DNA of 63,107 nt, filler included, from Gonapodya sp. JEL0774 (lineage: Eukaryota), in assembly GCA_027604505.1 (NCBI GenBank). It is 7 parts of 7 records of this genome, joined end to end, with 100 filler letters (N's around TTAATTAATTAA, not from the genome) between each part and the next. Parts side by side here need not be neighbours in the genome. Positions count along the whole stretch, not along the records: positions 54,224 to 63,107 come from JADIIX010000433.1; 6 more parts are not named here. One strand, given 5' to 3'. The notes beneath the pieces are model-generated. The model was not told the origin of the DNA, made no database searches, and worked only from the letters and a program-made list of their open reading frames with translations. Below, piece by piece: positions 9,085-63,107 of the stretch. Position 1 is the stretch's first letter. Every line of letters begins with the position of its first letter. Made by a program: the position numbers and the translations under genes.

Positions 9085-9988
9085 GTGAATGTGCGAAGGT
9101 GAGCACACTCCTGGAAACTTTGCTGTTTGTCCACCCGTGGCTTACTTAGTACATTAAATTGAAAGGGAATTCAGGTCGCTGCGTCTGAGAATGGATACAC
9201 CCCAGAGCAGGCAGCCAGTATCACATATCGGCACCAAGTGCTTCTGAGCATGCTTTACAAGAAGAACCCAAGCATGGAGGTTCTTCAAGTCTTAGTGAGT
9301 GCAATTCTACCTTTTCTACTACTTCAAGTCGATCTCTTAGCATTGGTTTCTACTCAATTAAAGGTGTTCGTCACATTAGCTTTCGCTATGCTCTTGAGAG
9401 CAGACGAAGTCCTTGCCTTTCGTATGAAAGATATCGACTGCAAGCCAGGAGATAATGCGTTCTACATCAAGCTCAAGCAGAGGAAGAACATCAAGACCGG
9501 TAAACCTGCCACTGAATTCCGTCTCAACTACGGGATAAAACCAGAGGACTTCTGCCCGCATCTCATTCTGTCAAGGTATTTGTATGAGCTTGAAGAGCTT
9601 GGGATTGAGGAAGGTCCTCTATTTCCCCGTATTAACTGGAATCACGTGGAGAAGGGAAGCGAAGCAGTGAGTGACATTGATGTACTTCTCAGTTCTCACG
9701 CTGCCTCTCACGCATTTACCCACTCGAACTCAGGCATATGACGAAATGCTTGCAAAGCTCCGCGATGCCCTATCAGCAATTGGGGTGACAAATGTGAAGG
9801 ATTTTGGCACACACTCCATGCATCAAGGAGGCGTCAAGTTTTTACTTTCTCTGGGAGTACCTCCAACTGAGGTGGCGGAAATTGGAACATGGAAGATTAA
9901 CAGTCCAGCGTTTATGCGGTACGTAACCGAATGGTGTAACAAGGGCAAGCGGAAGGCAGGCGGGGCATTATGTGAATTGGTTCTTTGA
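9085..9988 (+). mobile_element. Intron-containing tyrosine recombinase (Crypton-like), 5'-truncated, probably catalytically degenerate
   Basis: AFAMLLRADEV (box I Arg), KQRKN (Lys), GPLFPRI, phase-0 intron 9667-9733, then FGTHSMHQGG, EIGTW, FMRYV (Tyr). The HxxR Arg is replaced by His. Confidence 0.85.
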
Positions 9989-31490: not shown

Positions 31491-32673
31491 TCACATGAAG
31501 TCGTCATAAATATCATCTCGCCCCGCACCAGGCCCCGCAGCGGGGGTGTTTCGAATGTCCGCGTACATGTCCGCATCGCCAGCGTTTAACTTCTTGAGGG
31601 GTCCTAACATGTTATCCGCAAAAGCAAGAAAATGCGGTTAGTAAGCTTCTCAGCTGCATTGCCCAATTTCGAACACGAACCCTTCTTTTTCGCTGGCGCC
31701 TGTTTCTGCTTCACGCGCTCGTTCAGATATTGTGTGATGTGACCCTGGATTTTGCGGAGATCTGCCGGCTCTTCCAACGAAGAGCAGAGATCACGAACAA
31801 GCGACTCGACGAACGAGGGATAGTGGGTAGATTTCTGGATCAGAGCAGAGGGAGCATGTCAGATGATGACAATCCGCTGTTATTTATCTGTGAAGCCCCC
31901 GTTTATCCCAGAACGAAACATTGAAACAGAGACTTGCGACCCCGAATTATCAGAATCGCAGACATCCTCGTGACTTGGGGTGACGTTCAACTGCTTCGGC
32001 GAGCACCAACTTGAATTGTGGAACGGCACTTTGTCCCTGAATACCATTATGCTCACGGAGTTGGAGAATGCTGACCTCGAATTTGTTCAACTCAGCAACC
32101 AATTCCTTCCCCAGCTTGTTGAACTCCTCCTTGGTCTTGGGGTTTGCTCCCCCGAATGCGAATCCTCCCGCTGTGGCTCCGTTCGCTTTTGCTTCTACCG
32201 GCTTTGGTAGGCCTGCAAACAAGTCTTGTGTGTTTTTGAAGTCCGCTTGCTCCTGTAACTCCCGTTCCCGTTGTTTTCTGTCCGACGGTGTAAGAGAAGC
32301 CAGCTCGTCTTCCTCATCTCCTTTGTCTTCGGCACCGGCAGCTGATGCGAGGTCAAATTTCTCATACTTTGTCTTTGGCGCTTTCTTTTTCGACGGTGCA
32401 GGAGCAGGCGGTTTTGTCACCGAAGGTTTCGATTCACTCGGTTTTGGCGCTGCCGGTTTCTCCTCAGCGAGCTGCTCCCAGTCATCGGCAGCGGCAGATT
32501 CATCTTCCTCCTCGTCGTCCCATTTGCTCTTCTTCTTCGGAAGAACGCTCGGAGCCTTCGCACTGGGAACCTCGAAATCTTCGTCGTCTGCAAGGCCAGA
32601 GGAGCTGCGTGAGTTTTATTACCGTGCAGATATGAAATCAGTTGATGAAGCGTGATAAAGCACCCCAAGACAT
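31491..32673 (-). CDS. HCR1: Translation initiation factor eIF3 subunit J
   Basis: MSW|DDEDFEV...KWDDEEED...DDWE, LQEQADFKNTQDLF, NPKTKEEF, C-terminal YDDFM*. Confidence 0.9.
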
Positions 32674-32838: not shown

Positions 32839-35322
32839 TCAACGGGTGTCCCATCCGACCCTACTCTCCCGTCTTTCCATGGCAGCACTTGCTGCTGCTA
32901 GCCCTCGTGTATCATCCAGCTTGGACAAAATCTGCCCTTCATAGCCTGGTGTAAAGTATCGAACGATTTCCTCTGGAAAGCATGAATTGCATTCGCTGAT
33001 CGCTTCTGCTAGACTCTGTCTCTCCGCCTGGTTTCGACTCTCAGTATTGAACGTCGTGGGAACAATGGGGTCCTGTGTTGACTCTGCTATACTACAGAGA
33101 AGGCTTTGTGCCGCTTCCAGAGCCCCGCTTGATGCCACTTCCCGCCTTGCTGCAGGATCCTTGAGGAGGATTTTGGCGAGCTGGTGGTACACGGGGCCCA
33201 GTATGGAGGGCGGATAGATCGACTGAGTACCTGGTGTAGACAGAGCGGAGATGGGCGGGCCAGTCCTGATGTTCTTAGAAGGGAGAACGAGCGGGAGAAT
33301 TGACGGCAAGTGCAGTGTTTTGGAAAGAAGCAGAAGCAGTGCCGATTTGACCTGGGCGATGGGAATTCAAGCTCAGCTCGGATGTTCGTCCGACGAGGAC
33401 ATTCCTGAAGAATACCTACTTTCGCAAGCGCCTCAGTTCCAATTGAGCCATCCTTCCCATCCCACCTCGCTACCACTTCTGCCATCTTCCCCACTCCCCC
33501 AGCTACTCCCACCATCCTCGCATGCTCCGTAGAATGTCTCCCCATCTGCGCCAAGCACCAAGCTGCGGCTCCCACCACGCGGGGATCCTCTGTCGCACCA
33601 GCATCAAGACATTCAACCAGAGGAGGACATGCGAGGGAAGTGATTGCGGCGAGGGCAAGTGTTTCGGATGACGAGGCAATATGGGAGAGAGCAAGAACAC
33701 CTAGCATAAAGAGGGAATCATTGTTGTCTGAACCGAAAATGATGGCAACAACTGAGTTACCCCAAACTCACCAGGAAGCTTTGCAACACCCTTGCCTCGA
33801 GTAACATGATCGACCAAGGGAGCAAGCGCTCCCAGATTTACCGCCAACTGGGAAAGCTGGGTAATGAAAAAAAGGAAACAGTGTGTGGTTGAGGCCACTG
33901 CACGTGATGAATGTAGGACGCTCCAAACCCACCTCCGCCGAGTGCTTCACAACTCCCTGAATCACCTCCACAGCTCTTTTTCTCACCACCTCCTCGGGAT
34001 CTCCTGCGCACTTCACCGCTCCCTCAAGCGCGCCTGCATCTGCCACGGCCTCAGCGAGATCTATCGTATGGGAAGCAATCCGAGCAAGTGTGCTGAGAGA
34101 GGCTCGGCGTAGGAGTGAGGAAGGGTGTTGAAGGAACGACAGGAGGGATTGCAGACAGTTTTGAGTGAGGAGAGCGTGGGCAAGCTTCAAACATTCCAAA
34201 TTGAAGTTACGGAGAAGTCGACCAAAACCAACATAGCAGGAGCAAGCTTACTGCCGGCGAATGTCCCGCTATTTCGCTCATCGCTTGCACGGCTGCGCGG
34301 CGGAGGGAGAGCTCAGGTTCATCGGAACATGCTACTAGGAGAGGCAAAGCACCGAGGGAAACGAGTAATGACGCTAAATCTGCTCAAAAAAGAGAGTCAG
34401 CCGCGATGAACGGAACACGGACGGCGAAACTATGTGAGATCACCTGTTCCGTGACTGCCGACAGCAGCTACAGCCCAAGCTGCTGCCTCCTTGACCTGCG
34501 GATCGGGGTCTCCCAGGCAAGAAACAAATGAAGGAAATGCGTTAGCATCAGCAATGGCTTGGGCGAGCTGCGCAGCATGGAGGGTGATATGACGTATAGC
34601 GAGCAACGAGAGTCTTTTGAGGTAACGCTTAGCGCAAAGTGGTTGGAACGTGAGCAAGAATAAGGTAAAAGAGGAAGAGGCACGTCTAGATGTCAGTTTC
34701 CGCAAGTTTGACAGAAGACCAAGTCTCCGCCGACGATTTCATTAGCGATACATGTTTGTGGTTCATTGGTTTCGTCTCTGCAGAATATACCAACATTGCC
34801 AATCTCCAGACAGCGCACTAAGGTACCCGCAATACCCTCTGCAACCATCATTCGAGCTGCGGTTTCACTGTGATCTGCGAGTCTTCCCAGTGACAAGATA
34901 GCCGCCTGCTGAACCTGAGGAACATCATCATCAAGTAATGGTTTGAGCAATCGGACCGCTCCTGAGCTGCACAGAACATCAGCATTCTCTTCACGTAGAG
35001 AGAGCTCGGCGATTGACTGCACAAATGCGAGCCTCTCTCGTCGAAACCGGTCCAGAACTGTTGCTATTGTCTTCGCGTTCGAGGCCCCGGACATTGCCGT
35101 TACGTTTGGCGATCCTGACGAGGACTTCGTGCTCCATCGTGGTGCAGGAGCTGAAGAGGAAGAGAAGGCTAATTGTGCCCCATTCGCAGGCACTGCAGTA
35201 GAGTTTGCTGGTCCGTCAACTTGGACGTTCTTCAACCGCGTCGCAGGAGTCGAGCTTCTGGGGCGCGCCGAGCTTGCGCTGCGATGACTTCGTGAGGGTG
35301 GTGCGGTGGAAGGACGATTCAT
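32839..35322 (-). CDS. SPAG6: SPAG6/PF16 armadillo-repeat central-pair protein
   Basis: ERLAFVQSIAELS...LLKPLLDDDVPQVQQAAILSLGRLA; DPDPQVKEAAAWA; AAAWCLAQMGRHSTEHA; PEEIVRYFTPGY. All parallel SPAG6/PF16. Confidence 0.88.
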
Positions 35323-35462
35323 TTTTGTAGGTTTATTATTCTCAGGTTTGTGAAAAGACTATCGGACACCATATGTTTCAACAGTTGAAAACCAGACTTT
35401 CAACATCGTCTTTGTAGCTCCTCACTTCGCCGACGAGATTAACAAGAGAGAGCATCCCACCA

Positions 35463-36225: not shown

Positions 36226-38882
36226 GAGGCAAGATGGATGAGGGACGAGCGACGGCGGCCACGTACCGGTCCCGTTGTTGGTCCACCCGAGCACCGAGTT
36301 GAAGACGGCCCAGCCGTAGGCAGATGTGTTTTCGGGGTTGCAGCAGTTGAGGCTGTGTTCCCGAGTGTGTGTGTATGTATGTGGGGGGGGACACGATGCG
36401 GACACATGGTGAGTCACTCGTTCCACCTTCCCCGCGCGCCTGCCCCCCCCAAAAAAAAAAAAACAACCACCCCCGCTACCCACTGCCACAAGTTCCCTCC
36501 CACTCTATAACTCCCCGGTCCGTCACCGAGTTCGGCCACGTCGGCGCCGACCAGCTTGTTGTAGTTGTACCGCTCGAAATCGCCCACGGCTTTGGACAAC
36601 AGACCCGCGCCGAGGAGGAGGAGGAGTGCCGTGGAGACAACGAGGAAGAGGGAGAGGTCTAGAGGTGGGAGGAAAGCGGGGGGAAGGGGGGAAGGGGGGA
36701 AGGGGGAAGAGGAAACGATGAGTCCAGGGGGAACCCGGTGCCTCCACCTTTCCGATCGGACCCGCCACGAGCTCCCCGTCCGCCCTTTCCCCCCCCCCTC
36801 CCCCCCCCCCCCCCTGTACTCACTCAACCTCGACGAACTCCTATAAATCGCGTACCCTATCGCGAGTCCCAGCACTGCGCCGACGATGGCGGCGATGGGG
36901 ATGGACGCGGCGGGTTGGCCCAGCGACACGCCGCCCACGAAGACCACGGCTTCGAGACCCTCGCGGAGGACCGTGACCAGGGGGAGGATGAAGAGGGTCA
37001 GGCGGGAGGTGAGGGAGCCTAAGCGGGGTGGGGGGGACGGGAGGGAGGGTGAGTGGGTAGGGCAGGGAAAGGCGATGGCCGCTACAATGATGGGTGCTGG
37101 CGGCTCGCGGCGGTGCGCGGTGTGCGGTGTGTCGCTCTCTTACCCACCTTTTTCGACCTCCTTGCCGTCAGACCCGTCGACCACCTTGGACGCGAAGGCC
37201 CGCTTGAGTTTTATCCGCCACTTGATCTTGGCGCGGTCCATGCGGAGCATGGTGAGGCCCATGAGCCCTGTGCGGCGGGGTGCGGTGGTGATGCGGTGTG
37301 GGAAAATGGAAAAGGGGTAAAGAGGAAAGGGAGGAGCGGAGGGAGGGTGAGAAAGGGCGGACACGTGGTGGTGGGTAAAAGAACCAAGCACCACACGACG
37401 GGACGGCGGACGCGGCACAACAAACAAGGGCCGTGGCAAAAGGTTTCCCAAATGGGATAAGTCGATCGGGTCCATCCCATCCCGCAACATAAACCTCGAG
37501 TGGGCCTCCAGAGTCCGGCGGGACTCCCTTCCCCCCTTGGTCCCTCGTCCCTTCCCCCTCCGTCCCTCGGGTCGGGAGAGCTCGCTCGCTCACTATGACC
37601 GTACCCACATATCAACGCGCTGGCCAGCACCGAGAAGATGCCCTCCCACAGTTCTTCGGAGGCGCCCCAGAGGTTGTTGACCTCGACGTAGAACACGGCG
37701 AGGAAGGCGGCGCCGCTGTTGAGGGGGAGGGGGGGAGGGAAGGGGGTGTCACACAAAGTCCGTGAAAAGTCCAAAAGAGTCCATATGGACCCCCGCACAC
37801 AAAGTCCATTAAAAGTCCAAAGAGTCCATCTGGACCCCCGCACACAAAGTACATGAAAAGTCCAAAGAGTCCAAACGGGTCAAATGGTCCATATGGACCG
37901 CATGGACTGCAAAATTCAATCGCCTTCGACGGACTAGTCCATGAAAAGTCCAATTGGGTCAACTGGTCCATATGGACCGCAAAATTCAATCGCCTCCGAC
38001 GGACTAGTCCATGAAAAGTCCAAAGAGTCGAAATGGGTCATCTGGTCCCGCCGGTCCATATAATCGCCTCCGGGCACACACGTCCATGGAAAGAGCAAAT
38101 GGGTCACATGGTCCAATTGGGTCAACTGGTCCATATGGACCGCCAGGATAAATCGCCTCCGGCGGACTCTGCCCGTCGCTGACGCTTGGGCGAGGGGCCT
38201 CGCTGGCGCACGGCCCTTGAATCCGCTCGGGCGAGGCCGGCCTCCGGTTCGCTTCGCTCACCTCCGGCCGGCTCGCTTTCGCTCGCGCTGGGTCTATACT
38301 CACATACAAAAGGCAATGAGCAAACCGGTCATGGCGCCGGCAAAGATCTGGAACTTGAGTTTCTTGAGGAGCTGGGTGTCTGAGAGCTGAGCGTTCAAGA
38401 GCGACGAGGTCGGGGAAGACTTTTCGACTGCAGTCTTTGTCGTTCCGTCGTCCTCCGAGTCTGCTGCTGCGGAAGTTGTTGCTGGGTCGGGTTGGGGGAG
38501 GTCGCCGCCGGTAGATGGGGCGGGGAGGTCGAGAGCAGGATCGGTATCGGGTTGAGGTAGTATAGGCTGGATTGCCTTTTGGTCAATGACTTTTGCAATG
38601 TCTGTTCCGACGAGCTGTTCAGCGAGTGCGAGGAGAATGGACATGATGATTGCTGCCTCGAGGGTTTCGCGGAAGACGACGAAGAAGACTGAGGATGGGG
38701 AGAGTGGTGATGGTGGGGTGATGGGGGGGGAGTGTGGGAGGAGGGAAAGGGGGAGGGATGGGGGTGAGAGACGGGGGGAGCGGATGGGGGGAGAGAGGAG
38801 GGATGGGATGGGATGAGGGATTGGACAGAAAGAAACAAGAGGGGAGAACAGACTCACTGGGAACAGAGAAGTAGTTTCCCAT
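36226..38882 (-). CDS. FTR1: High-affinity iron permease (3'-truncated)
   Basis: MGNYFSVP|VFFVVFRETLEAAII (RExxE), EELWEGIFS, TMLRMDRAKIKWRIKL, second REGLEA, GDGPGSY, LNCCNPE..GWAVFNSVLGWTN. Confidence 0.95.
37750..38290 (-). repeat. Intronic repeat block in FTR1 (GGTCCATATGGACC palindromes plus a copy of the 68-bp unit)
   Basis: Reverse-complement copy of CGCCCAAGCGTCAGCGACGGGCAGAGTCCGCCGGAGGCGAT near 38152-38192. Repeated aaagtcc(a) and ggtccatatggacc motifs. Confidence 0.8.
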
Positions 38883-39766
38883 TGTTGGAGGTGGGGGGGA
38901 GGGGGGAGTTGAGATGGAGTTGGAGTTGTGGAGTCTTTGTGGATTCTGGCAAGCAGCACAAAGAAGAATCCCCCGCTTAATAGAAAGCGCTGAATTAGAA
39001 AGTGGAAGCAACCGCAGCCCCAAAAAAAGAAGGAGTGGCAGGCCGATCTGGGGAGATCTGCCTCACTGACATGACCCGAGATGAGGAGCCTCCTTGCCAC
39101 TTCCCCCTCGACGGACCCCCGCACCAATCGCCCATCCCCCCACCGGGGCCTCAGCCTGCCTCCTCCCCCTGTTCCGGTCTTGGCACCACCGCCACAGAGT
39201 GGGGTTGAGGGTGCACCCTGCGGCCGCCAAGACCTGCGCCACCCGTCTCTCCCTGTCACCTCCAGTGGCGAAATTCCCGCGATCTGGCGCAGGAGAGGGG
39301 AAAGACCAACCACCGTGTCCACAGCTGCTCCCTAATCTATCTCCTGCCCTGTTTCCTTGGACTCTTGACCGATTGGACTTCTTATTTCCCTCCTCCACCT
39401 GCACACTCGCTTCAATCGATCCTTCCATCAATCCATCAACCCAACCCCCCCTCCTGCGTTTTCCCTCTGTTTCTTCTTGTTCCTCCCCCGCTTCCCTTCC
39501 ATCCTTCCACACTCCTCCTCTCCTCCCCTGCTTGTGTCTCTCATCTCCATCATGAACGTGAGTCCAACACTCCCCCCCCCTCTTTTTCTCTCCTCTCCCC
39601 TCTCCTGTTTCTCATCTCTCCCCTCTTCTGTTTTTCATCGCTCCCCCTCTTCTGTTTTTCATCTCTCCTGCCCCGGGGCGCGGGGGCCCCCCCCCCCCCG
39701 CCCCGCCCGGACCGCCCCCCCACCGCCCGGCCCACACCGGCACAGCGCAACAGAGAAAGAAACCCC

Positions 39767-42700
39767 ANNNNNNNNNNCCTCCGCCCCCCCCCCCCCTCCC
39801 CCAGTCCCTCTCTTCCCTCCTCTTCCACTCCGCTTCTCGCGTCCTCCTCTTCCTCTCTTCTTCCCCCTCCTCCCTCGTCCACGCCGCCAAAAAAGAGATC
39901 TGGTACAACATCCAATACACAAGGGCGAATCCTGACGGTCTTTTCGACAGGAGGGTCATCGGCCTCAATGGCACGTGGCCACCTCCCGTCATTGACATTA
40001 CTCAGAACGATACTTTGATTGTTCATGCGGTGAGTGAGCCCGAGCGTCTCGCCCAAGCGTCAGCGACGGGCAGAGTCCGCCGGAGGCGATTGAACTTTGT
40101 GGTCCATATGACCCAGTCGCNNNNNNNNNNNNNNNNNNNNNNNNNNNNNNNNNNNNNNNNNNNNNNNNNNNNNNNNNNNNNNNNNNNNNNNNNNNTTTGT
40201 GGTCCATATGACCCAGTCGCCCAAGCGTCAGCGACGGGCACAGTCCGCCGGAGGCGATTGAATTTTGTGGTCCATATGACCCAGTCGCCCAAGCGTCAGC
40301 GACGGGCACAGTCCGCCGGAGGCGATTGAATTTTGTGGTCCATATGACCCAGTCGCCCAAGCGTCCGAGACGGGCAGAGTGTGCCGGAGGCGATTGAACT
40401 TTGCGGTCCATATGGGCCTGTGAGGCCAATATGGACCAAGTTGACCCGTTTGCTTGTTCATGGACTAGTCTTGTTGGCTTGGTTGGTTGGTTGCTTCGTT
40501 TGGCTCACAAAGTGTAACACCACCCCACCACCCACCACCCACGCCCCTCCCCCCCCGCCCTACACAGACCAACCTCCTCGACCTGCCCTCTGGCGTCCAC
40601 CACCACGGCATGTTCTTCAACAGGTCCTCGTGGTACGACGGTGCCACCAGCGTCACGCAGTGGTGAGTCAGTGGGGGCCAGCGTGAGCGCCACGCCCAAG
40701 CGTCAGCGACGGGCAGAGTCCGCCGGAGGCGATCGAAATTTGCGGTCCATATCGGCCGGTAAGGCCCATATGGACCATATGGACTTTTCATGGACGTTGC
40801 CGGAGGCGATTGAACGTTGGGGTCCATATATGGGGCAGGACCCTATCGACCCTATGGACTTTTCTCACGGGTGTAATTTTTTATTCCTGCCTTTCTTTCG
40901 TTCTCCACTCTGACCCTCTCTCTCCCCTCTTTACCCACCCCAGCGGCATCCCCACCAACGCCACCTACACCTACCTGGTCGACCCCACCACGTCGGGGCA
41001 AACCGGCACCTACTGGTACCACGGACACACGCGTGGTCAATACGTGGACGGGTTCCGCGCTCCCTTGATCATCCACAGGAACGGGGAAAAGACCAGAAAG
41101 GGAGCGGAATACGACGACGAGTACGTGCTGGCGCTGTTTGATTGGTACCACGACGAACACAAGGTGCTGTTGGGGCAGTTCTTGAGCGAGTCCAATCCAG
41201 GTAGGTTCAAGGGGCCGGAGGGGGGGTGGGGGGTACGCTAGATTGGTGGATGACATGTGATTGGTGTTTTTTAAAAATGGGTAAACATTGACTTGGGTTC
41301 AACATATGCCAGTAAGCGTATGCGATAAAGAGTAACCAAANNNNNNNNNNNNNNNNNNNNNNNNNNNNNNNNNNNNNNNNNNNNNNNNNNNNNNNNNNNN
41401 NCCCCCTCCCCTTCTCCGACCCCCCTCAGGCGGCGCCGAACCCGTCCCCAAATCCGCCGTGGCTGTCGTCGCCCACAACGGCACTTACCTCGCCGGTTTC
41501 TCCGAGAACTCCACGATCCCGTTCGTGCCGGGAAAGACGTACAGGTTGAGGATCATCAACATGTCGGCGTTGGGTGAGTTTGGGTTGCCCTGCCCGTGGG
41601 GGTGGGGGGGGGGGGGGAGGCAAGATTGATGGCTCACCTGTGTGTTGTGTTTTTTCCCCCTGGGTTCTCCTTTTCTTGGGTTCCACCTCTGACTTTGGGC
41701 GTATCCGCTACCGTGGACCCACATCTTTCCGGTCTTGCGTGATCGGATTCAGCAATGTTCTCCGTGTGGATCGACGGACACAACATCACCGTGATCGAAG
41801 GTACGTGGGCACGTGGGCATGTGGGATACTTCCCTTCTTTGTATGCTCATCCCCCCATCACATTCTCTGTCCTTTCCTTCGGACTCCCCCGCCAACCCCA
41901 CCATTCCCCCCACACGTCTAGTCGACGGCACCGACGTGGAACCATACCCGATCGACATGGTCACCCTTTCGGTGGCTCAGCGGATCTCGGTGCTGGTCAC
42001 GGCCAAGAACGAGACCGACAGTAACTGGTTGGTGCATATGAATATGGTGCGTTGAGGGGGGAGAGGGGGGGGGGGGGATGGGGAAGGGGGAATGGAAGAT
42101 TTGACACCGATTTTGATTTTGTGGTGACAGAGTCCCGACATGTTCGATTTCGTCCCGGACGATTTGCAACTGAGTGAGTACAACCATGGTTGTACCACAC
42201 CTCTCTCGTAAAAAAAAACAACTCACACACCTCTGCCTCCCCACTTCCCCTCCCTAGACATCACCACCACCATCCTCTACAACACCTCCTTCCCCACCGC
42301 CGACGGCACCACGGTCGACGAGTACCTCGAGTTCCCCGACGCCGACCTTGTCCCCATCGACGTGGAAGGCGAGGCCACCGCGGACGTGTCCATCACTCTG
42401 GCGGCCACCTTTGACACGGCCGACGACGGGACCAACCGGGCCTTTTTCAACGACATCACCTACGTGACCCCCCTCACGCCGACGCTGTTGACGGCCAGTA
42501 CCATGGGCAACTTGTCAAGTGATGTGAGGGTGTATGGGCAGACGAACACCTATGTGTTGGAGCTGGGGCAGAATATTGAGCTGTGAGTTGGTGGTGGTGG
42601 GGGAAGGGGCTCGGGTTGGAGCGTAGGCTCACACACCTATCACACACCTCGAATCACTCCTCGCCTCCTCCACCCCCCGCAGCGTCGTCGTCAACCTCGA

Positions 42701-43634
42701 CGCGGGATACCATCCCTTCCACCTGCACGGTCACAAGTTCCAAATCGTGGGAACCAGCATGGACGTGACCTCGGACGACGTCACGGTGAACCCGCCCGTC
42801 AACGAGGGCATGGCCAACCCCATGAGAAGGGACACCATCATGGTGCCACCGGGCGGGTCAAGGACGATTAGGTTCAGGGCGGATAACCCGGGGGCGTGGT
42901 TGTGGGTTTCTGTTTTTTTTTTTGCGGGAAAGGAGGTGGCCGGTGTGGCGACATGTTACGTGGCGGCTCACTCAGCGTTCCAACTCCCCTTCCTTCCCCC
43001 CTTCGCACCGTCGGACCTTCAACCCCTCCAGGTTCCACTGCCACATCGAATGGCACCTCGAGTCGGGCCTGGCTGCCCAGTTCATCGAAGCGCCTTCGGC
43101 CATCCAGGCCCTGGCAGGCAACGCGCCGCCCGAAGTGGCACAGCACTGCCAGGCGCTCGGTGTGTCGGTCACGGGGAATGTAGGAGGGAAGATGTCGGTG
43201 ACGGTGGGTTTGGGGAGGGGGGGTGGCGGGGGGAGGGGTTTGTTGTTCTTGATCGGGGCTTTAATTTCTTTCTGCACCAACAGGACTTTGGCGCGTACTC
43301 GTTCGGTCCGTACGTGCAAGTGCTCGGGTTCCAAGCCAAGGGCATCGTGAGTACACATCTCCATTGCCACCTTCGTCACCACCTCCACAACCCCTCACTT
43401 TCCACCCACCACCCCGCCCACCCCCTCCCCAACCAGATCGCCCTCGTCTTCTCAGCCCTCTCCGCCATCCTCGGCATCGCCGCCGTCGCGTGGTACCCCC
43501 TTGGCGGCGGCCTGGACGACGAGGAGCTGGAACTGGAAGTGGCCGCGGCCATGGCCATCAAGGCCAAGAAGGGGTCCAAGTGGCAGAGGGCGAAGAACAT
43601 GTTCAGTAAAGGGCCCGAGCAGGAGAAGAAGTAG
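39767..43634 (+). CDS. FET3: Multicopper ferroxidase with C-terminal TM, divergent from FTR1
   Basis: NPDGLFDRRVIGLNGTWPPP, HHHGMF, YWYHGH, HPFHLHGH, NPMRRDT, FRADNPGAW, FHCHIEWHLESGL and a C-terminal TM. The start codon probably lies in the 10-N gap at 39768-39777. Confidence 0.95.
40045..40430 (+). repeat. 68-bp tandem minisatellite in FET3 intron 1 (another copy at about 40692-40830)
   Basis: ggtccatatg recurs at 40201, 40269, 40337 and 40405 (period 68) with near-identical intervening sequence. An internal N gap lies in the array. Confidence 0.92.
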
Positions 43635-44761: not shown

Positions 44762-45133
44762 TTATATTTCAGTGGTGCCTGTCCGTCGACCGGACAGTGC
44801 GTGGTATTGTAGTGCAGCCCAAAAGTGGGGGTGGTTGCGAAGATACCGCTGCCAAGAGTCATCAGTCCAGCGCCCACGTCTTTGAATGACGAGGGGAGGG
44901 ACGCCTTCGGCAAGCAGAAACATCGCCCCGCCCGAGCGAAAGCTGTGGCCTGTGAGGTCGATTTCAGGATAGAAGAGTCGGAGGCTCTCAAGGAACCACC
45001 GTCGTGTTGGTAGAGAGCCATCGGGCAAAGTCAGCGCGTATGTGGAAGATGGAGTGCAAATGCGTAAGTAATGCTGCCAAGCTTTTACAGGACAAGTGGC
45101 ATCAGTGGTTTGTAGAAGTGGGACTGTGAGGGG
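44762..45133 (-). mobile_element. DIRS/Ngaro-type tyrosine recombinase, C-terminal part
   Basis: TCPVKAWQHYL...LPTRRWF...LTGHSFRSGGA...IQRRGRWTDDSWQRYLR with intact HxxR, GRW and Tyr. Truncated at the linker. Confidence 0.85.
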
Positions 45134-46347
45134 NNNNNNNNNNNNNNNNNNNNNNNNNNNNNNNNNNNNNNNNNNNNTTAATTAATTAANNNNNNNNNNN
45201 NNNNNNNNNNNNNNNNNNNNNNNNNNNNNNNNNACAAATGTCCATGGATCAGGTAAGTTACAAAATTAATTTTCCGTCGTTTTTCTTTTGAATTCACGCA
45301 TCTTCCTTGTGAGCTACGTGCCCGTCATGCTGGGATGTCCCGCTACGCTCCCTGGGGTTTTCGCTTTGAGGCTACAATGCCAGATGGGACAATAAGGCGA
45401 TCACACAATTCTTCGAGGCTCCATGGACGTCTTGGTGATCTACGTCTGGTTCCAGATCGTGTGGAGCAGGAGCAGATGGATTGGTTGGTTTGTTTGGTGA
45501 TGCGAGCCATTAGCCGAACCTGGTTTGGTAAGTTTTGGTGGTGGATGAGGGGGAGAAATAATGAATTATTTAGAAAATATTTTTGGCAGGTTTTACTTGT
45601 TACGAAGATATCACCCCACGAGTCCTCCGCTGCTGGCTTGAAGTTCTCGGGCTTGGTACCACAACTCGCAACCCCACAGGTGAAACAATGCCAATGCTAT
45701 TTTATGGGAATCTGAAGAGACAGCTCCTGGCATATGTTACTTACTGTGAGAGGAATGATCGTGAGGAATTTCAGAGGCGGTTGGCCCATGTGATGACTTG
45801 GAACAACATGATCAATGACGGGGTTTTCAACGGAGAGAAAGATTAAAGTCTAGAATTTGTGGAAATCAGAATCAATAGCTAGAATAGTTTTGAAGTTTTG
45901 TGACCGTCTGTGAATATGAGATACAGTTTTGAAAGTAATTGTCGAACGTGCGAAATTGATCGCGCAGCAACTCATGATGGCAAGTAGTGAGTGGCCCGTC
46001 ACTCTCCCAAAGAGACTACACTACTTCTAGTAGCGAAACAAATTCTGTATGAGATATGTTGTTGTAATCATTCTGTTGCATTACAAAGAACCGAAACGAA
46101 ACGTAGCAACTGGAACTCTACATCACAAAGTTGGTTGTGATGGAGCCGCAACACTGCGGCGTTTTTTGCTACCCATGACGCAAACTGATAGTATGTGGTG
46201 CTCCAGGCGTTCTTTGGTGCTTTGGGGCCGTATTTTATACATCCATAGAGAGCTGCACGCACAAGTGAGAGACAAGCTCCGTGAAATAGAACCAGACGGA
46301 ATCAAATGTTCGCTCACTTGAAAATAAAACATTCAAATGTATTACTG

Positions 46348-54223: not shown

Positions 54224-55562
54224 AGAGTAAGAGGGACACCGGATCGCCAAAACTCGGGGATAAGAAGTAGAGGCGAGAGGTCAAGGTCGCTGACTGCAGA
54301 CGCTTTCAAGGATGAAGAGGTGGCAGGGCTGCGAAATGGTGCAGGTACAGTGGATTTGGAGGATGTCGACAAACGGGATGGCCGTGAGGGATGGTGAGCA
54401 TGATAGGGGCGGGACGAAGGAGACGGTGACAAGGAAAGCGACAGAATGGATGGGGACTGCGAAGTTAAGGAATCAGGTGAGGTCCAATGTGTGGAAGCTG
54501 GGCGCTTCGGCTCTTGACCAATCCTCCAAGCATTCGGTATCCGTGCCTGCAGAATCGTGGTGACCAGTGTTTGAATATACGGGAGCATTGCATGGGAAGC
54601 TTCTGAAGGTCGCTGGTCATTCTCTCCGCCAGAGTTGCTTAGTTTTGAAAACGCACGAGATGTTGCTGCCGATATTGGAGACGAGGAGAGCAGTTCCCGG
54701 TGAATCAGAGTATCCGCCAACGAGGACAAAGGTTCCTGGATAATAGCTGCTTGGGCCAGAGTGCTGTAATTTGCACTGTTAGACGCAAGCTTCCATCGTG
54801 GTACACGGATCTGGACTTCTGCATACCGTGAACTAGTCCCTGCCGTCACAACCGAACGAGCGTCATCAGCTTGTCCGATATTTACGTGACCATCCACATC
54901 CTCTCGATTATCTTCGTCCCGGTCCTCTTCGTCCCACTGGGTGAGTCGGTTACGGTTGGCGCGCAAGGGGCTCGTCCCCGCTTGAGAGATAGGGACGGGC
55001 AGCGGTTGTGCCCGCACAGAGGGGGATAAAGATACGTTCCATTTTTCGTCTTGGTCGGCAGGGGTCCCCGTGTCCCACACTGGACGCCAAGTCGGAAGCC
55101 CGTTCAGTTCTGCGTTCTCAGCTGCGGAAGTCGCCGATCGCGCTTTGTTGCACTTACCGAGCGCTTCGTCATCTCTCTTTCCCCACACGTTTCTACTGGA
55201 TATTCTATGTTCCCGTCGGGCGCTTCCCGTGTCTTTGCGGTCCTGTCCTTCTTCCTCCCAGCCTTCCGTCTCGGAGAGAACAGGAAGGCCCCGCATGTGC
55301 CCGCTGCTCTGCTTACGGCCTCGCGTTTACCTGCACTGGCTTAAGCGTCTAAAGATGTTCGATTTCCAGGCACTATCTCTTCCTGATGGTCAACGCAAAG
55401 GTCTCAGCTCCCGTGTTGACGTGGGTGTTGGGTTTTGGTGATCAAGGACCGATCATCGTCATAAGTAAGCCGACCAGTGCGCCTTTCATGCCTTGATTTA
55501 ATTGTTACTACTCCCAGGTGAGAGGTCTTTAGTTTCTTATTACTTTTTCTAATGATCATCAT
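54224..55562 (-). CDS. Hypothetical Ser/Pro-rich protein (3'-truncated)
   Basis: Long open frame running into the linker; no motif recognised; the start is uncertain. Confidence 0.5.
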
Positions 55563-56132
55563 GGGCGAAGACGGGAGCGAAGCCATATTTTGGGTAAATT
55601 AAACACGAGTTCAGGCTCAGAACTTATGAAATGTGCGCTTGAATATGCATCCCATCTACAAGTCACTTGTTTCAATGTGACGATATGGACAAAGCACTGA
55701 GTTCCAAAGGCCTTCAAGGTCCAGGTGTTAATATGTAGTGACGCTACGTGTCCCAAGACAAAAACTCGCGTTCAAAATACACGAAACAGCTTGTAGCATG
55801 AATACCTACTATTAGCCGTTTTGCCTTAGCCGTGCTCTTGTGAGGTGTTTTGTTATTTGAGGTGGTGGAGACATTCAATCACGGCCACCGGTCGAAGAAT
55901 CAAGAAGAGCGAGTATTGGCGCGCTCAAGAAAATTTGCACAATTTAACCACGGTACTGTGTATCCGGCTCGCAATAATTCTATGTTTTCCAAAAATGGAT
56001 TCATGGGAGAAGTATTCCCCCACCTCCAAAGTATGACCGCTTTCCCTGTCGTCCACACTGCCAAAAGACCGAAACCGGCGAAGACATCAGGGATCCTGAT
56101 TATCATTTTTCAAGCCGCGAATAAAGCTTTAT

Positions 56133-57975
56133 ATGACTGCCGCACGAACTCTGCGGCTGGAGTATGGCTTGGATGGTGTCAAGGTGTGTCTCGGTCACGT
56201 CAACGTGTATACCTATTTGGGACTCCCATTTCTCAAGTTCTTTCTCGCACGCATCCCCTTCCACAGGTTCTCATCTTTCGCCCAGGTACAGAGCCGAACA
56301 CTTACGATGACCTTGTGGCCGTCCTCGCCTCTCGTATTCCGGCGCTTGCTGTCGCACTTGAAAACTTTGTTCTCCGTCTCTATTACCTGGAAAAGGGAAC
56401 TGGCAGGAAAGTGCCCCTTGAGGATGACGACGACGTGATTATCATGTTCCATGACCACACGGTGGAGGAGAGGGTCGGGCTGGTCGCAACATTTGAAGAG
56501 GTTGGTCTGGTCATTGACCCATTCGGATTGGTTGGAGCTCCATTGACTTGATTCACCCATCCGTGTAGGTATCTCCTACAAACCAGCACTTGTTGTTTTC
56601 GGTTGTTCGTCCGGATCCTCCTCCCTCCGATCCATGTCCTCCACCGCTCCGACACTTGACAACCTTGACATCGTTCACTGAATCCGGATCTGGCACCCCC
56701 CTCTCCAGCTCTTCCGCGTCGACGCTGGCACAAATTGCTGCTTCCAATGAGGACCAGGTGGACACTCAGATCATCGGTGTCTTCCAATCGCTCGAGAAGT
56801 TGACGGTCAAGGATGGTGGTGTTACGGAATCCATACCTATTGACGTCGGGTCCCGACCCGTCGTGCCAAGCGGCACAACTTCAAGCAAGATTAAACATAG
56901 GCTATCATTGTCTACGAGTGGGAAGGCTTCACTTGAACGTGCGGGTTGGCCTACCCAGTTCTCACCGGCCTCGGCTGTACAGTCCCACGGATCCCCCTTG
57001 TCGCCCAATCTGGAGCTCGCTGATCCCATGTCGCATGTTGATGCACCTCCTCAGATGGATTCTCGGCGAAGTTTCGCTGCAGATGTAGAGACAGGCCACG
57101 CCCGTCGTCGATCATACGTCGGAGACTCGCGATCCCAACATTCTTCCGGCGCTGGCACTGTTCCCGTATCACGAGACCCTTCGTTCCGGCACCTGAGAAC
57201 TCTAGATACGCCCGCTCCTATTCCCAGCGATCGCGAGTGGTCGTTCCTCCTCACTTCGAAGAGACACGGGGATTGGAAAAACGTTGGCCTGGATATCTCA
57301 AACGAGCAGTTGCAGAGGGTCGTGAATGGATGGGAGCTTATTAAAATCAAACTCGAAGCGTCAGAGGCGTTCTCGAATGAGGTGTTTAAAGCGTTGCTCG
57401 CTCAGAACACTGGTGAGTCCCCCATCCGCCCATTTCCTCCACCACTTTGCTCCGAACACTTCTCTTGAATCTAAGGCTACGCTGAGCTTTTCCCCCATCC
57501 CGATGTCGTACCGGCTCTCATGGTCATGGAAGGCGTTGTTGCGGAAGCCGCGGTGTTCCAACGTGGGAAGAGTACTGATCAGCAGAACACCATCGCCCAG
57601 CTGATTCTACTGGGTGCTAGGCACATGCGATGGTGGAAGGTACACGAGAACGACTTCCGAGCCATGATCATCGCAATGTGAGTCCCCTGCTTCTATGTGT
57701 ACTACCGCACTTCTTCGGCGATCGCTCAATGGGAGCACTCTATTCTCATGACCAGCCTGCACGCTTTGTCTCTGCACCACGTCTGGGTTCCCGCTGGTGC
57801 AAAAGATCTTCTCGCCTGGCGTACGGTGCTCTGTGAAATGGTTTCTGTGATGGCGCGTGGTATGGAGTCGCCACAAGAGGAAATCGCAGAAGTCAAGGTC
57901 ATTATGGATGGCGCGAAGGCAAGGTCCGCGCAGAAGAAGGAGAAGAGGATCGGTGACAAGTGTAAAATGATGTGA
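56133..57975 (+). CDS. PB1-like domain + globin + CaaX protein, paralog A
   Basis: Exons: MTAARTLRLEYGLDGVK|...LRLYYLEKGTGRKVPLEDDDDVIIMF; linker; QLQRVVNGWELIK...FSNEVFKALLAQNTG|YAELFP...LILLGARHMRWWKVHENDFRAMIIAI|LHAL...LLAWRTVLCEMVSVMARGM...CKMM*. Confidence 0.8.
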
Positions 57976-58537
57976 TTCTGTTTTGGAGTTCGTTGTGTTC
58001 GTGTCATCGAGGCTTTGGTAATGTAATGTAGGTAGTTACTTACGTACGGTCGGTGTAGTAATCTTTCAGATTTGAAATCGTTTCGAACATTATAAAAATG
58101 GAAACCACGTGACAACCCGCACCAATGTGCCGCAGTAGAATGAGAAAAAGGAGATTCCCAAAGTCATTCCGACGACCAGTCACTCACTATAGATCTATCG
58201 AAAAATAATGGTGAGCTCAAGATGAAAACAACACTTGTGACAAACTGTGAATTTCATTCCTTCCACCGATCGTCGAAGTCACTTCGCTCCACACTGGGCC
58301 GACAAGTTCACCAGCTGGGGTTCACGGTGGAACCCAATCAAGGGGAGAAAAAGGACCGTGTAATGAGTAGAGCCAACGCATTATCGGCTTTGGAGAAGTT
58401 ATGTGAATTTTCTTATTTCTGTCTTCCTGAATCGGGCCGCAGCATCCGATTCGGCATCCAGCATCAGGTAGGCAAGCGAGGCGAGTACAACCCCTCCTTT
58501 GCCTGCCAAACGCATCAAGCATTTCACTCAGGCAATC

Positions 58538-60058
58538 ATGGCTGTTCGCACGATCCGATTGGAGTACGAAGATGTTGTCAAGGTGCGCTCCAATGTCTCT
58601 GACCGCTCCTACCGAAACAGGGTGGCTGAACTCCATGACGCAAGGTTTTTCTGGTTCGCCACGGCACCGAGCCCCGCACCTTCGATGAGCTCCTGTCACT
58701 CATTGCTGCCAAGATACCGTCTATTGGACTTGAGTTATCTACGAAAGTTTTGCGTCTTCATTATCTTGAGCTCCAAACGTTTCGCAAGATCGCACTGGAA
58801 GATGATGATGACCTCATCACAATGTTTCACGATTATCCAGTTGACGAACGGCTGAATATACTGGCGAGCTTGGAGGACGTAGGTTGATTGAGGATTGCCC
58901 ATGATCCTCGATAGGCCATGTTAATCTCACCTCCAAACATCCAGGTCAATCCCTCAAACCGACGACTCCTTCTGAATCCCACCCGTCTCGACAATTTTTT
59001 GGGGCGCTATCTTGGACGCGCATCAGACATGAACAAACCATGGGAACCTGTTGCGAATCCCCCTTACACGGCGTCGCAAGGGTACTCCGCGGAACTCGCC
59101 TCCGTCTCAACCGGCTCCAAAACTGTTGTTAACGACTTAACCTCAACTCCGTATGCTCATCCTGCGATCGCAGCGGCGGTGAAATTGAAACCTTCTCAGT
59201 CGTCGCTTGACGGAAGCAGTGGCTTTGATCAAAGTCCTCCACGAGTGCCGAAACCGAGAACATTCCTGACGTTCGCTCCGGTACCATCGGATCTTGAATG
59301 GAATCTTTTGATAGACTCTAAGCGCGTGGGACACTGGACAGATGTGACACTCGACATATCAAAGGACCAGATCCAGCGAGTTATGGACGGGTGGGAGCTC
59401 ATCAAAAGTAAATTAGGACTTGCCAATGCCTTCTCAACGGAAGTTCTGCACGCGCTTTTGGAACAAAATCCATGTGAGGACCCTGTAGTACCGTTTGCTT
59501 GGTATAAAACGCTAGCATCTCGCCCTGAAATCGATACTTTCGACAGCTTATATAAACTATTTTCCTCATGCCGACCGCGTCCCAGCCTTAATTGTTATGG
59601 AGGGAGTCACTTATGAAGCAGTCATCATGCAGCGCTCGCGAGAAGACCAAAGGGATGCCGTAGGAGAGCTCATCTGGCTCGGAGCGAGACACGCCCGGTG
59701 GTGGAAGGTCGGTCATGAGGATTTCCGGGTCATGATAGTTGCAATGTGAGTCCAAATAGAGGAGAAGACATGCTTCTAAGTGCTGGATCGACTCATCACA
59801 TCGTGTCGTTCTTGACTGTTCAGACTCCACGCCCTATCGAATCATCATGCGTGGGTGCCCGGTGGCTCCAAAGACCTTCTCGCATGGCGTACTGTTCTTT
59901 GTGAGATGATCGGTGTCATGTCACGTGGTCTTGTCGCTGGATCAACCGAGATTCAGGAGGCGAAAAGCCGGATTGATGCGATGAAAGCAAAAGCAGCCGT
60001 CAAAGGACAGCCAGAGGTCAAAGAGAAAAGACTGGTTGACCGATGCAAAGTGATGTGA
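58538..60058 (+). CDS. PB1-like domain + globin + CaaX protein, paralog B
   Basis: Same intron positions as A. KIALEDDDDLITMF; QIQRVMDGWELIK; NP|SYINYFP; LIWLGARHARWWKVGHEDF; LLAWRTVLCEM; ends CKVM*. Confidence 0.8.
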
Positions 60059-60329
60059 CATCTGCATATTCTGTGACGTGGAACTTCTGTGTTTCATTCT
60101 CACCCTTCGTAACTCTACATAATTGTCACGGTGGGCCCATTAGAGATTTTGCACACCTACGCATATCTTGGGATGCATTCCGTGTATCAGAATCGTATAA
60201 TAGAAGCAGTTTATCTAGCAAATCAACAGACTCTAATCATAAGCGATGGGTGAAACTGCCAGTACCATTTTCGATAAATTTGACCGTTCGACCCTATGGA
60301 GCAAAGTACCGTCAATGGCGATTCAGTCT

Positions 60330-61114
60330 AACTGTTCCAGGAATACTTGCGACTCACCTCGGCGATACTCTTCAGAACTCTGATAAGACCACTTAGAGAC
60401 CCCATCTGCGAGGGGTGCATAGAAAGGGGCTGGACGGACTGCTCTTCGGGGTGCGACAGATGTGAGGCGGATAGAACTTTGATGAGATCTCTGCGATATG
60501 AAGTCAGTTGACAGGAGTTGTTCCACTTGCAACGACAGCGGCACCTACCTATATGTGATGCCCTTGCCTTCCCCGTCCATCCAAATAGCCCATCTCCCTT
60601 CGTCCTCCTTTCCGTCCCACAACGGCAGCACTTCGTCTACGACGAGCATTCCTCTTGCCACCAAATCTCGGACCGTCCTGGTTTTGTCCCTTGCAATCCC
60701 AGTCAAGTGCCCGGGTTTATCTGGTCCGTAGACGACGGTCGGAAAGGGAAGCACTGCGAAAGAAGGGTCGACAGGGTGAACAAGGATACGAGGCCGAGGA
60801 ATTGGAAAAGCCAGTCCTTTTGCTGGTGGGGGGGTCGGAACACCATGGTCCCCATGATAGCCGGCGAGCCGCGCCGGCAGATCAGGGGACCACTGGAAGA
60901 TAGCGACGGAGCCACCGGCGCGAAGAGTACCGAATAAGGCGATGAGAGATTCAAGTGTGAAGAAGGCGGAACGGGATGCTGGTTGCGGTGTAATGGACGG
61001 AGGTGGTGGGAGGATCACGGCAACGCAATCCGACTTTCGGAAGGGCCACCTGCAGATGAATTCAATCAAATCAACTCCCATATGTGAGTGATATACGAGA
61101 GCTTGTGTTCCCAC
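60330..61114 (-). CDS. Hypothetical protein between paralogs B and C
   Basis: 189-aa ORF plus a following 73-aa ORF; no motif recognised; boundaries uncertain. Confidence 0.35.
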
Positions 61115-62404
61115 CAGTTCGCAAGCACATCTGATTTAGACGGCGGAGTACGATCGTCGTATGGCTTAAGGGTCACTGAAAGTCACCTAGACAAGGTAAT
61201 TCCAAAGTTACGCACCTCTCAGGCTTCTTCCAAAAGCTCCCGATAGACGGTCAAGAGTCCCGTAGCTTCACAGTGTCACAGTCACACATTTCACCTTCTC
61301 GATGAACCGGAAACCGTCACCACCACAACTCCCACCTCATTCTGGTCCCATGAGTAGCATCTGAAGTATGCAAGGGATGAAAATGGTGATATTGGTGATC
61401 TAAACGTAATAATCTCACCTTCCGATGCGATTGCTTCGGATTTCTCTGCGATCCACGAATCCTAGTTTCACCAGGGAGAACTGTTGAAGTACCTAATAAC
61501 TTGATTCCCACCAAGCACCAGAAAAGCTCACAATCAGTAACTGAATTGGTGCTGGAAGTGAGGCTCTAACGATGTTTGATTCCGAGGAAGTTGGGTTCGC
61601 TTTCGAGGCGTTCATCTAGTTCACTGTCTCTTCTCCAAGGTGGAAATAGAAAGTGATTAAAGCTGCTACGGGGTAGGATTGGCGCTTGATGTTGGAACGA
61701 CAGCTGTTCCGTCTTCGAACTTTTCAACAGCTGTGGGGCGCCTCATAATTCACGCCAACTCGGTTTGATTGCGCTGTCGCTTTTACATAATAAATTGAAT
61801 ATCGCAAGCATGCATACCAAGAAGTAATCGTTCTTCAACAGGAATGCTCGAGATAATCTAATCAAGCAACTTTTACGCATAAACTCCACAGCGAATGTAA
61901 CGAACTACACAAATTATTTGCATCTGAAAGCTGTTCATTGGTCTCCACATGCGTGATCATTCGACACACGTCCATACATATCCGCCTTTTCGTGTGGGGT
62001 GACGATCAGTTGGACCCCTCTGAGGTCAGATTTTTCCAAAGATGAGCAGTCTCAAAGGATCCCACTTTCTGCATGTAAAATACGATTGTTCGTTGCTCAT
62101 AAGAGGCCTACATTGTTGGACTTACAAACAAACACTTTTGTACGAATATGGTGGAGGTGGCTCAAAGTCGAAAAACATTGAGATGGCTTCGATAACTTGG
62201 CTAACCGAGCCGTTGGTGTTCTAAGACGGACACGAGGAATCTAGTACGTTTCATTATACCTTTGTGAGGAGAATACGTATCGTGCTTGCAGGCACGCGCC
62301 GCACACCATCCTCAAAGGATCCGCCGTGGTTCCTCGAACAAAAATTCGCGACCGTTGCTTTCAAACTATTCCTGAAGTCTTCATTCATTGGAATTCGGGT
62401 CACT

Positions 62405-63107
62405 ATGGCGTTACGGACTGTTAGGCTGGAGCATCAAGATAATGTCAAAGTGAGGAAGTCGCGAATCGCACCCCGCGCGATAAATCGACCCGAACTTTTT
62501 GTCTAATTCAGCCCCATTTCGCCACTCCAGATATTCTTCTTCAGAAACGGAGATGAACCAGAAAGTCACGAAGCTCTTCTCGGGGTCATCGTGACGAAAA
62601 TGCCCCACCTGACTCAAAGTCTGTCGGACCACGTGTTGCGATTGTTTTATCTCGAACGAGAAACGTCACGGAGGGTCGCTCTTGAAGACGATGACGATGT
62701 ATTCACGATGTTTCACGACAATCCGACGCACGACCGCCTTCTCCTGCAGGCCGTTCTGGAGGAGGTGCGTTCTGACGAAGATAATGATTTCAGTTTCTGA
62801 TGTCACCTCCCAAAACCAAAATTATCTCAGGCAAATCCATTGAACCAGCACCTACTCTTGTCAGCAGAGCAACTCGAGGGAATCATCGCGACGCGAACCA
62901 TTCATCGACGCAACACTTCAATATACACGGAGAGCACCTTGGGCCTGCGCAGTTCAAATCGGGAAGCTCGCGTCATCTCTCGATCAGGAACAGACCCAAA
63001 TGGCACGCCACTCCAACACTTTATATCAATAGACTCTGCGTCGATGAGGTCGGTTCCTCAAATCTCACAGCTCGATTTTGGTCGCTCGGGTCTGAGCACT
63101 CCCCGAA
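62405..63107 (+). CDS. PB1-like domain protein, paralog C (3'-truncated before the expected globin)
   Basis: MALRTVRLEHQDNVK|IFFFRNGDEP...VLRLFYLERETSRRVALEDDDDVFTMFHD, with the same exon structure as A and B. Confidence 0.75.

Follow-up and report, generated by a model that had tools for sequence, protein, structure and literature searches.

We analysed a stretch of 63,107 nucleotides (nt) from Gonapodya sp. JEL0774 (assembly GCA_027604505.1), hereafter the window, to which all positions refer. Its JADIIX010000433.1 part holds two tandem genes on the same strand, A and B, and the start of a third, C. As a preliminary description had proposed, A and B splice cleanly into frames that join an N-terminal PB1-like domain, a domain predicted to be a globin, and a CaaX motif at the C-terminus, and all of the sequence motifs quoted there (RTLRL, YLE..LEDDDD, ELFP/NYFP, LGARH and AW..VL) are present; the third paralogue, beginning at 62405, had been overlooked.

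Gene A (56133..57975, plus strand; exons 56133-56183, 56267-56500, 56569-57412, 57476-57677 and 57756-57975) encodes 516 amino acids (aa) ending in CKMM, and our model is letter-identical to KAJ3334915.1 (P0021), which NCBI lists for Gonapodya sp. JEL0774 as a "hypothetical protein". Gene B (58538..60058, plus strand; exons 58538-58582, 58645-58878, 58945-59473, 59547-59745 and 59824-60058) encodes 413 aa ending in CKVM. Each is interrupted by four GT-AG introns (62-83 nt), whose positions and phases (0, 0, 1 and 2) agree between the two genes. The incomplete gene C (62405..63107, plus strand) shows its PB1 exons (62405-62449 and 62531-62764) and a linker from 62831, with the first two introns placed as in A and B, to which it is 39-44% identical (tblastn); it runs past the window end, and any globin part would lie outside the visible sequence.

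Our model of gene B equals the NCBI model (P0001) apart from 13 added residues (59547-59585), which hold the CD1 Phe and are absent from the latter as if an acceptor 39 nt downstream (ending at 59585) had been used. The upstream acceptor (59546) is likely the true one, because 8 of the 13 residues are identical to those of A and the stretch also occurs in the homologues P0004, P0006 and P0007; the shorter splice, which would drop a conserved globin CD corner, was rejected as a likely annotation error. Genes A and B are identical at 53/98 positions in the N-terminal domain, 91/142 in the globin and 31/104 (30%) in the linker. For both domains the proportion of synonymous differences (pS) is near saturation at 0.80-0.90 and that of nonsynonymous differences (pN) is low at 0.26-0.29, so that A and B are conserved coding genes with purifying selection acting on both domains. 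A repeat search over 55300-63107 returned just short, chance-level pairs.

Domain structure of the encoded proteins

The structure of the gene A product was predicted with AlphaFold2 guided by a 21-row alignment of homologues; a single-sequence AlphaFold prediction of P0001 (mean predicted local distance difference test score, pLDDT, 37) was not used. In the guided model, aa 311-500 (pLDDT ~94) form helices A, B, C, E, F, G and H, with no D helix, together with a pre-A helix and an extra C-terminal helix. The globin domain itself (aa 338-481; 57295..57867, plus strand) carries Trp350 at A12, Phe368 at B10, Phe382 at CD1 (57490), His426 at F8 (57622-57624, plus strand) and Trp465 at H8; the F8 His of gene B lies at 59690-59692 on the same strand. 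Ahead of it stands a conserved pre-A extension (57211..57294, plus strand), composed of helix 316-327 and a W-x-D-x-x-L/V-D segment and common to the whole globin family described below.

The 50 rows listed by a wide structural search consisted entirely of globins and PB1 domains. Globins matched the C-terminal domain at Z 9-12.8 with a root-mean-square deviation (rmsd) of 2.5-3.8, the best being Glycera haemoglobin (Z 12.8, rmsd 2.7, 138 residues aligned), although a Z of about 13 is close to the most that chance can produce in helical bundles. The top Foldseek rows were plant non-symbiotic haemoglobins (E 1.7e-3), the PB1 domain of NBR1, neuroglobins and annelid haemoglobins, and a solved CD-less neuroglobin, titled ferric, was among the best. 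Independently of the model, 14 of the 15 PDB rows matched by a globin-family profile at E<=10 were globins, with a best E of 0.013, and the profile aligned His426 with F8 of alpha/zeta globin and cytoglobin. A language-model atlas also ranked globin clusters first (0.86), which we take as a lead only. Identity to solved globins is merely 10-20%; phmmer searches of the PDB with P0001 and with exon profiles gave nothing useful, no Protoglobin match appeared in Pfam, and NCBIfam returned nothing for nine of ten proteins and one chance row for the remaining one. Weak Pfam rows for E1-N, Ntox35, DUF6305 and BphC_D1 (E 0.05-0.2) were also taken as chance. The sequence evidence for a globin, weak alone, agrees with the fold, and we conclude that the C-terminal domain is a predicted 3/3 globin of the myoglobin fold, as had been described from its helix pattern. 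Its introns lie at C3.1 and G12.2 (our numbering, from PDB alignments), which rules out the ancestral globin placement B12.2/G7.0 (PMC7457136).

The haem pocket was assessed in the ten complete family members by the hydrophobic myoglobin-fold template and the CD1 Phe criterion of PMC3287990. Outside helix E, 237 of 261 template positions are apolar, against a background of 43%. The F8 His in LGARH, to which the preliminary description had drawn attention, is invariant down to 23% identity, as are Tyr at C4, Trp at A12, Trp at H8 and Met at H19, and the haem-contact positions F4, FG5 and G5 are kept together with it. The register of helix E is ambiguous, with E7 either Pro389 or Val/Ile393, and the position is apolar in 10/10 under both; no His or Gln occurs in helix E columns 388-398, and B10 is Phe, Leu or Met, and once Lys. 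From the apolar E7, the lack of His and Gln and the residues at B10 we infer a five-coordinate haem with no distal hydrogen-bond donor. Membership of the hexacoordinate globins (neuroglobin, GLB-12, class 1 phytoglobin) was rejected for want of a distal His at E7 in the ten members, and that of the flavohaemoglobins because only ~35 residues follow helix H, with no reductase, and B10 is Phe, Leu, Met or Lys and not Tyr.

The N-terminal domain of gene A (aa 1-100; 56133..56583, plus strand) was predicted with equal confidence (pLDDT ~94) and has the ubiquitin-like order of strands and helices. It matched the PB1 domain of Par6 at Z 11.6 (rmsd 1.8 over 82/82) and those of Cdc24 and p67phox at Z 8.8 each, the rows for this domain in the wide structural search being PB1 throughout, and Foldseek gave the NBR1 PB1 domain at a template-modelling (TM) score of 0.73. 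In Pfam, PB1 fell under the cut-off (E 0.05 and 0.012 on exons; 22.1 against 23.6 bits for the sister protein P0016), and AtNBR1 (E 0.38) was the only row of note from the PB1 family profile, amid chance matches. Clusters of the ubiquitin-like/PB1 kind came up in the language-model atlas (0.86), with PB1 in 20% of the members of the second. The PB1 or beta-grasp fold suggested from the sequence is thereby borne out at the level of predicted structure.

PB1 types are defined by a beta-1 Lys and by the OPCA core D-x-D/E-x-D/E (PMC7051960), beyond which the OPCA motif has a fourth acid (PMC2121648). The basic beta-1 (RTLRL) is present, what is probably its conserved position being Arg (Arg8 in gene A) and not Lys in 13/13 domains with that strand, and Lys17 and Arg22 in beta-2 are nearly invariant across the Gonapodya PB1-like domains. 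The acidic motif described as OPCA-like holds up in part: its second cluster (LEDDDD, residues 68-73) is real, with 4-5 acids in 13 of the 14 related domains, whereas the place of the first is taken in gene A by a partly basic loop, and the canonical core was rejected, being found in 0/14 under strict or relaxed definitions. By its predicted fold the N-terminal domain is a PB1 with a rebuilt acidic face. A homodimer prediction for two copies of aa 1-105, made without an alignment, scored 0.00 and is evidence neither way.

Between the two domains of gene A lies an S/P/T-rich linker of ~200 aa (56584..57210, plus strand; ~100 aa in B), predicted to be disordered (pLDDT <50 for most of aa 120-300; S+P+T fraction 0.34-0.36). 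After the globin, a helix (484-512), a basic tail and the CaaX motif (57868..57975, plus strand) end the protein, with CKMM at 57961-57972 in gene A and CKVM at 60044-60055 in gene B. The CaaX terminus with its basic tail had been noted earlier and is confirmed, with Cxx[M/Q] conserved across the family; such ends occur by a crude count at 6 of 1325 open reading frame (ORF) ends in the window. The first residue after the Cys is Lys, not aliphatic, and the 15 residues preceding Cys513 hold 7 K/R against 2 D/E in A, with 5 K/R in the same stretch of B. In a CaaX motif, Met or Gln as the last residue directs farnesylation, and the Cys is likely farnesylated in A and B, judging from the motif. Both the CaaX rule and the polybasic second signal are described in PMC10590752.

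Homologues and their range

A phmmer search with P0001 against 1.84 billion representative sequences (E<=0.001; a single-sequence search, which could miss remote relatives elsewhere) found 20 homologues, every one from Gonapodya sp. JEL0774 or G. prolifera JEL478. They make up two overlapping families, one globin-like and one PB1-like. A word-index search with the globin profile, confined to proteins of 79-541 aa, returned two known members and missed others of that size, and has little bearing on range.

Leaving aside the near-duplicate fragment P0002, 11 entries carry the globin domain and ten of them are complete. All ten complete entries end in Cxx[M/Q], and thus 10/11 of the globin-bearing ones, a pattern that persists down to 23% identity. 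In P0005, the exception, PB1 and helices A-C are followed by sequence unlike that of the family, probably through a gene-model error that retained an intron. PB1 forms the N-terminus in A, B, P0006 and P0005, and the full PB1, globin and CaaX architecture is present in A, B and P0006 of G. prolifera, hence in both species. Elsewhere in the family P0014 (KAJ3338136.1) carries the globin and CaaX behind a BTB-like N-terminus (Pfam BTB E 0.0013, below cut-off), which suggests a possible cullin-adaptor version; P0008, P0010, P0011 and P0013 have helical or low-complexity N-terminal segments, and the models of P0004 and P0007, from contigs of 2-3 kb, show no N-terminal partner. A tree of the ten globins separates the PB1-associated clade from the other at 100/100. 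Since half of the globin family is without PB1, globin plus CaaX appears from these sequences to be the stable unit and PB1 an exchangeable partner. In P0008 (KXS21221.1) a partial copy (pre-A extension and helices A-C) precedes the full globin, reflecting either an internal duplication or two merged genes.

Of the 14 domains in the PB1-like family, eight form a sister clade and are fused to another conserved domain. In the PB1 tree, gene C groups with A, B, P0003, P0005 and P0006 at 100/100. The sister clade (P0009, P0012 and P0015-P0019) carries a fused domain of ~180 aa, for which Pfam, PDB sequence searches and NCBIfam (two proteins scanned) gave no match; the unit of PB1 and this domain occurs twice in P0009, and by locus tag several of the genes adjoin on one contig. 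Among the homologues found, the expansion is confined to Gonapodya, and by sequence it forms a fifth fungal PB1 group beside the Bem1, Cdc24, Mug70 and NoxR families (PMC7051960).

Other genes in the window include a divergent pair of an FTR1 iron permease (minus strand) and a multicopper oxidase (plus strand) at 36414-43634. This is the common Ftr1/Fet3 pairing for iron uptake, and the sequence there is GC-rich, containing repeats and gaps. An eIF3 subunit gene of the eIF3j type (Pfam PF08597) lies at 31950-32615 (minus strand), and an Armadillo-repeat gene at 32839-35358 (minus strand) presumably resembles the flagellar SPAG6/PF16, which would fit a zoosporic fungus. Two ORFs, at 9163-9741 (plus strand) and 44762-45181 (minus strand), resemble by eye tyrosine-recombinase fragments of mobile elements; the latter had no Pfam match at E<=0.01.

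Proposed role and alternatives

We suggest, with about an even chance of being right, that A and B encode farnesylated, membrane-tethered sensors of O2, nitric oxide (NO) or redox state, which hold a five-coordinate haem, have no enzyme output and are clustered through PB1. The disordered linker would tether the PB1 domain to a myoglobin-like globin that likely binds haem, farnesyltransferase would modify the CaaX Cys, and the basic tail of A and B would supply the second signal for the cytoplasmic membrane face. An apolar distal pocket holding a five-coordinate haem, with no hydrogen-bond donor for O2, would suit weak O2 binding, a preference for NO or carbon monoxide, or fast redox change, and not O2 storage. 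As no enzymatic output domain is present, the protein may signal by binding its partners or the membrane more or less tightly, an effect that helix H, the extra helix leading to the lipid tail and the invariant M-x-R-G motif could plausibly relay. Through PB1, proteins of the A/B type would assemble among themselves or with Gonapodya PB1 proteins of the sister clade, candidate partners proposed because they bear the same basic and acidic faces, and not with Bem1, Cdc24 or NoxR. Both PB1 faces are conserved across the Gonapodya expansion, so our simplest guess is that the contacts stay within it.

Gonapodya, a zoosporic fungus of fresh water, forms true hyphae that evolved independently (PMC6899921, PMC7539958). 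A bolder, quite unlikely version of the sensor makes these proteins gas-controlled membrane switches, prenylated His-ligated globins that assemble or disperse a lineage-specific PB1 scaffold and so steer hyphae along O2 or NO gradients. Ligand binding would then move helix H and the tail helix and expose the farnesyl group, or sites for partners, to a different degree.

Several observations count against the proposed sensor. Foldseek gave no match at E<=0.001, Pfam had no family for P0021 at E<=10, and its Globin model (PF00042) reached only E 0.21 and 12.6 bits for P0004, short of the gathering cut-off of 22 bits. CD1 is Phe in five of the ten globins (A, B and three more) and Tyr or Ile in the other five, and this variation, with a very short CD/D region, could weaken haem binding. 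The ten CaaX ends belong to related proteins and so attest conservation, not independent events, and in four of the five family members without PB1 the tails are neutral or acidic. Head-to-tail PB1 assembly is uncertain, since the OPCA core is missing. Lastly, nothing in these sequences and models separates sensing from catalysis.

One rival is a membrane-proximal redox catalyst, whose haem would scavenge NO or reactive oxygen species (ROS) or make superoxide while PB1 recruits a reductase or concentrates the activity. The anatomy is equally compatible with it, an unprotected distal pocket should autoxidise fast, the GLB-12 of Caenorhabditis elegans is a membrane-bound, superoxide-producing globin, and NO dioxygenation is possible for all globins given a reductase. 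We nevertheless consider it rather unlikely, as there is no reductase domain, no Tyr B10/Gln E7 pair as in flavohaemoglobin NO dioxygenases and no distal His for a six-coordinate state of the GLB-12 type, and the interchangeable interaction domains (PB1, BTB-like and predicted coiled segments) are more like those of signalling adaptors. The short CD corner, the Tyr or Ile at CD1 in half of the family, the fully apolar helix E and the low identity to solved globins would also suit a haem-free or haem-poor scaffold of globin fold whose ligand is a lipid, a different small molecule or a protein and in which the His is kept for structural reasons. Yet the F8 His persists in 10/10 members across the range of identity, along with F4, FG5 and G5, and a neuroglobin that lacks the CD region and is titled ferric stands among the best Foldseek rows, which makes such a scaffold improbable.

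The preliminary description had instead coupled gas sensing to hyphal polarity or NADPH oxidase by docking of PB1 to Bem1, Cdc24 or NoxR. The basic Arg8 could bind an OPCA-bearing partner, the fungal Bem1, Cdc24, NoxR and CBS-PB1 proteins mostly carry OPCA motifs, and Gonapodya does make true hyphae. Beyond the shared fold, however, we found no support for this coupling: Arg stands where Lys is usual, the domains lack the OPCA core, the nearest PB1 relatives are the Gonapodya-only expansion, and the phmmer matches at E<=0.001 were Gonapodya paralogues with no Bem1, Cdc24 or NoxR among them, no search for the Gonapodya orthologues having been made. We rate it as having a poor chance. An oxygen store or carrier near membranes for life in low-oxygen water, which the myoglobin-like fold and the family expansion might suggest, is hardly credible: there is no distal hydrogen-bond donor, and a lipid anchor, long linker and scaffold domain are ill-suited to a bulk carrier. 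For globin X, membrane binding is regarded as incompatible with a standard respiratory function (PMC7457136).

Relation to known globins and PB1 proteins

The closest parallels to the sensor that we propose are the animal globins bound to membranes by N-acylation (globin X, GbXL, crab HbL and GLB-12), likewise 3/3 globins held by lipid, for which a redox or signalling role has been proposed or shown (PMC7457136, PMC4686822). The Gonapodya proteins differ from them in having a predicted C-terminal CaaX anchor in place of N-terminal myristate or palmitate, no distal His, a fused PB1 domain, and introns at C3.1/G12.2 against B12.2/G7.0. A further membrane case is a truncated globin from an amoeba, for which a membrane segment is predicted at the C-terminus (PMC4081604). 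With the fungal globins of a 2012 census (flavohaemoglobins, single-domain F globins of Mucoromycotina, sensor Sgbs and T1) they share the 3/3 fold and the F8 His, and some of those globins also bear long unidentified extensions (PMC3287990); the Gonapodya globins, by contrast, have no reductase, and none of the census globins came up among the phmmer homologues at E<=0.001. The globin-coupled sensors (GCS; S family) resemble them in joining a globin to a second domain and in having a pre-A extension and a helix continuing from H, but the Gonapodya globin is C-terminal and has no enzymatic output domain; the structural scores, Z 9.1-9.8 for GCS domains against 12.1-12.8 for myoglobin-like and F globins, are weak evidence. 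With fungal Bem1, Cdc24, NoxR and CBS-PB1/Mug70 the PB1 domain shares the beta-grasp fold, a basic beta-1 residue and the beta-3 Tyr (PMC7051960, PMC2121648), and departs from all four families in its Arg for Lys, its missing OPCA core and its expanded second acidic cluster. Its partner domain, a globin, also sets it apart from the fungal PB1 families surveyed in the main text of PMC7051960.

In the open-access literature, judged by titles and the beginnings of abstracts, we found no PB1-globin fusion and, on pairing globin with CaaX or prenylation, no prenylated or farnesylated globin or haemoglobin, subscription journals being outside the search; for a Gonapodya globin it offers just a reference title, and among the papers listed we identified none on the oxygen ecology of Gonapodya. 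The main text of the fungal globin census (PMC3287990) mentions neither PB1, CaaX and prenyl groups nor Monoblepharids, and the word globin is absent from that of the PB1 survey (PMC7051960). The preliminary description knew of no PB1, globin and CaaX architecture, and our searches of Pfam, NCBIfam and the literature did not turn one up, InterPro lying outside the search. The kind to which it would belong, the lipid-anchored signalling globin, is already known.

The range so far is two Gonapodya species, seen through sequence and prediction, and the significance of the finding is limited to that extent. Within it, these genes extend the fungal globin census by a class that Pfam misses and place a fifth group beside the four fungal PB1 families known so far. 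Their domains are small and expressible, and the distal pocket, unusual in being all-apolar, is suited to ligand-binding tests. The lipid-anchored globins described in the literature examined are N-acylated and mostly from animals (PMC7457136, PMC4686822). If true, a globin family of a zoosporic fungus that is prenylated at the C-terminus would have arrived independently at the lipid-anchored design, which bears on the suggestion that association with membranes is a basic globin function.

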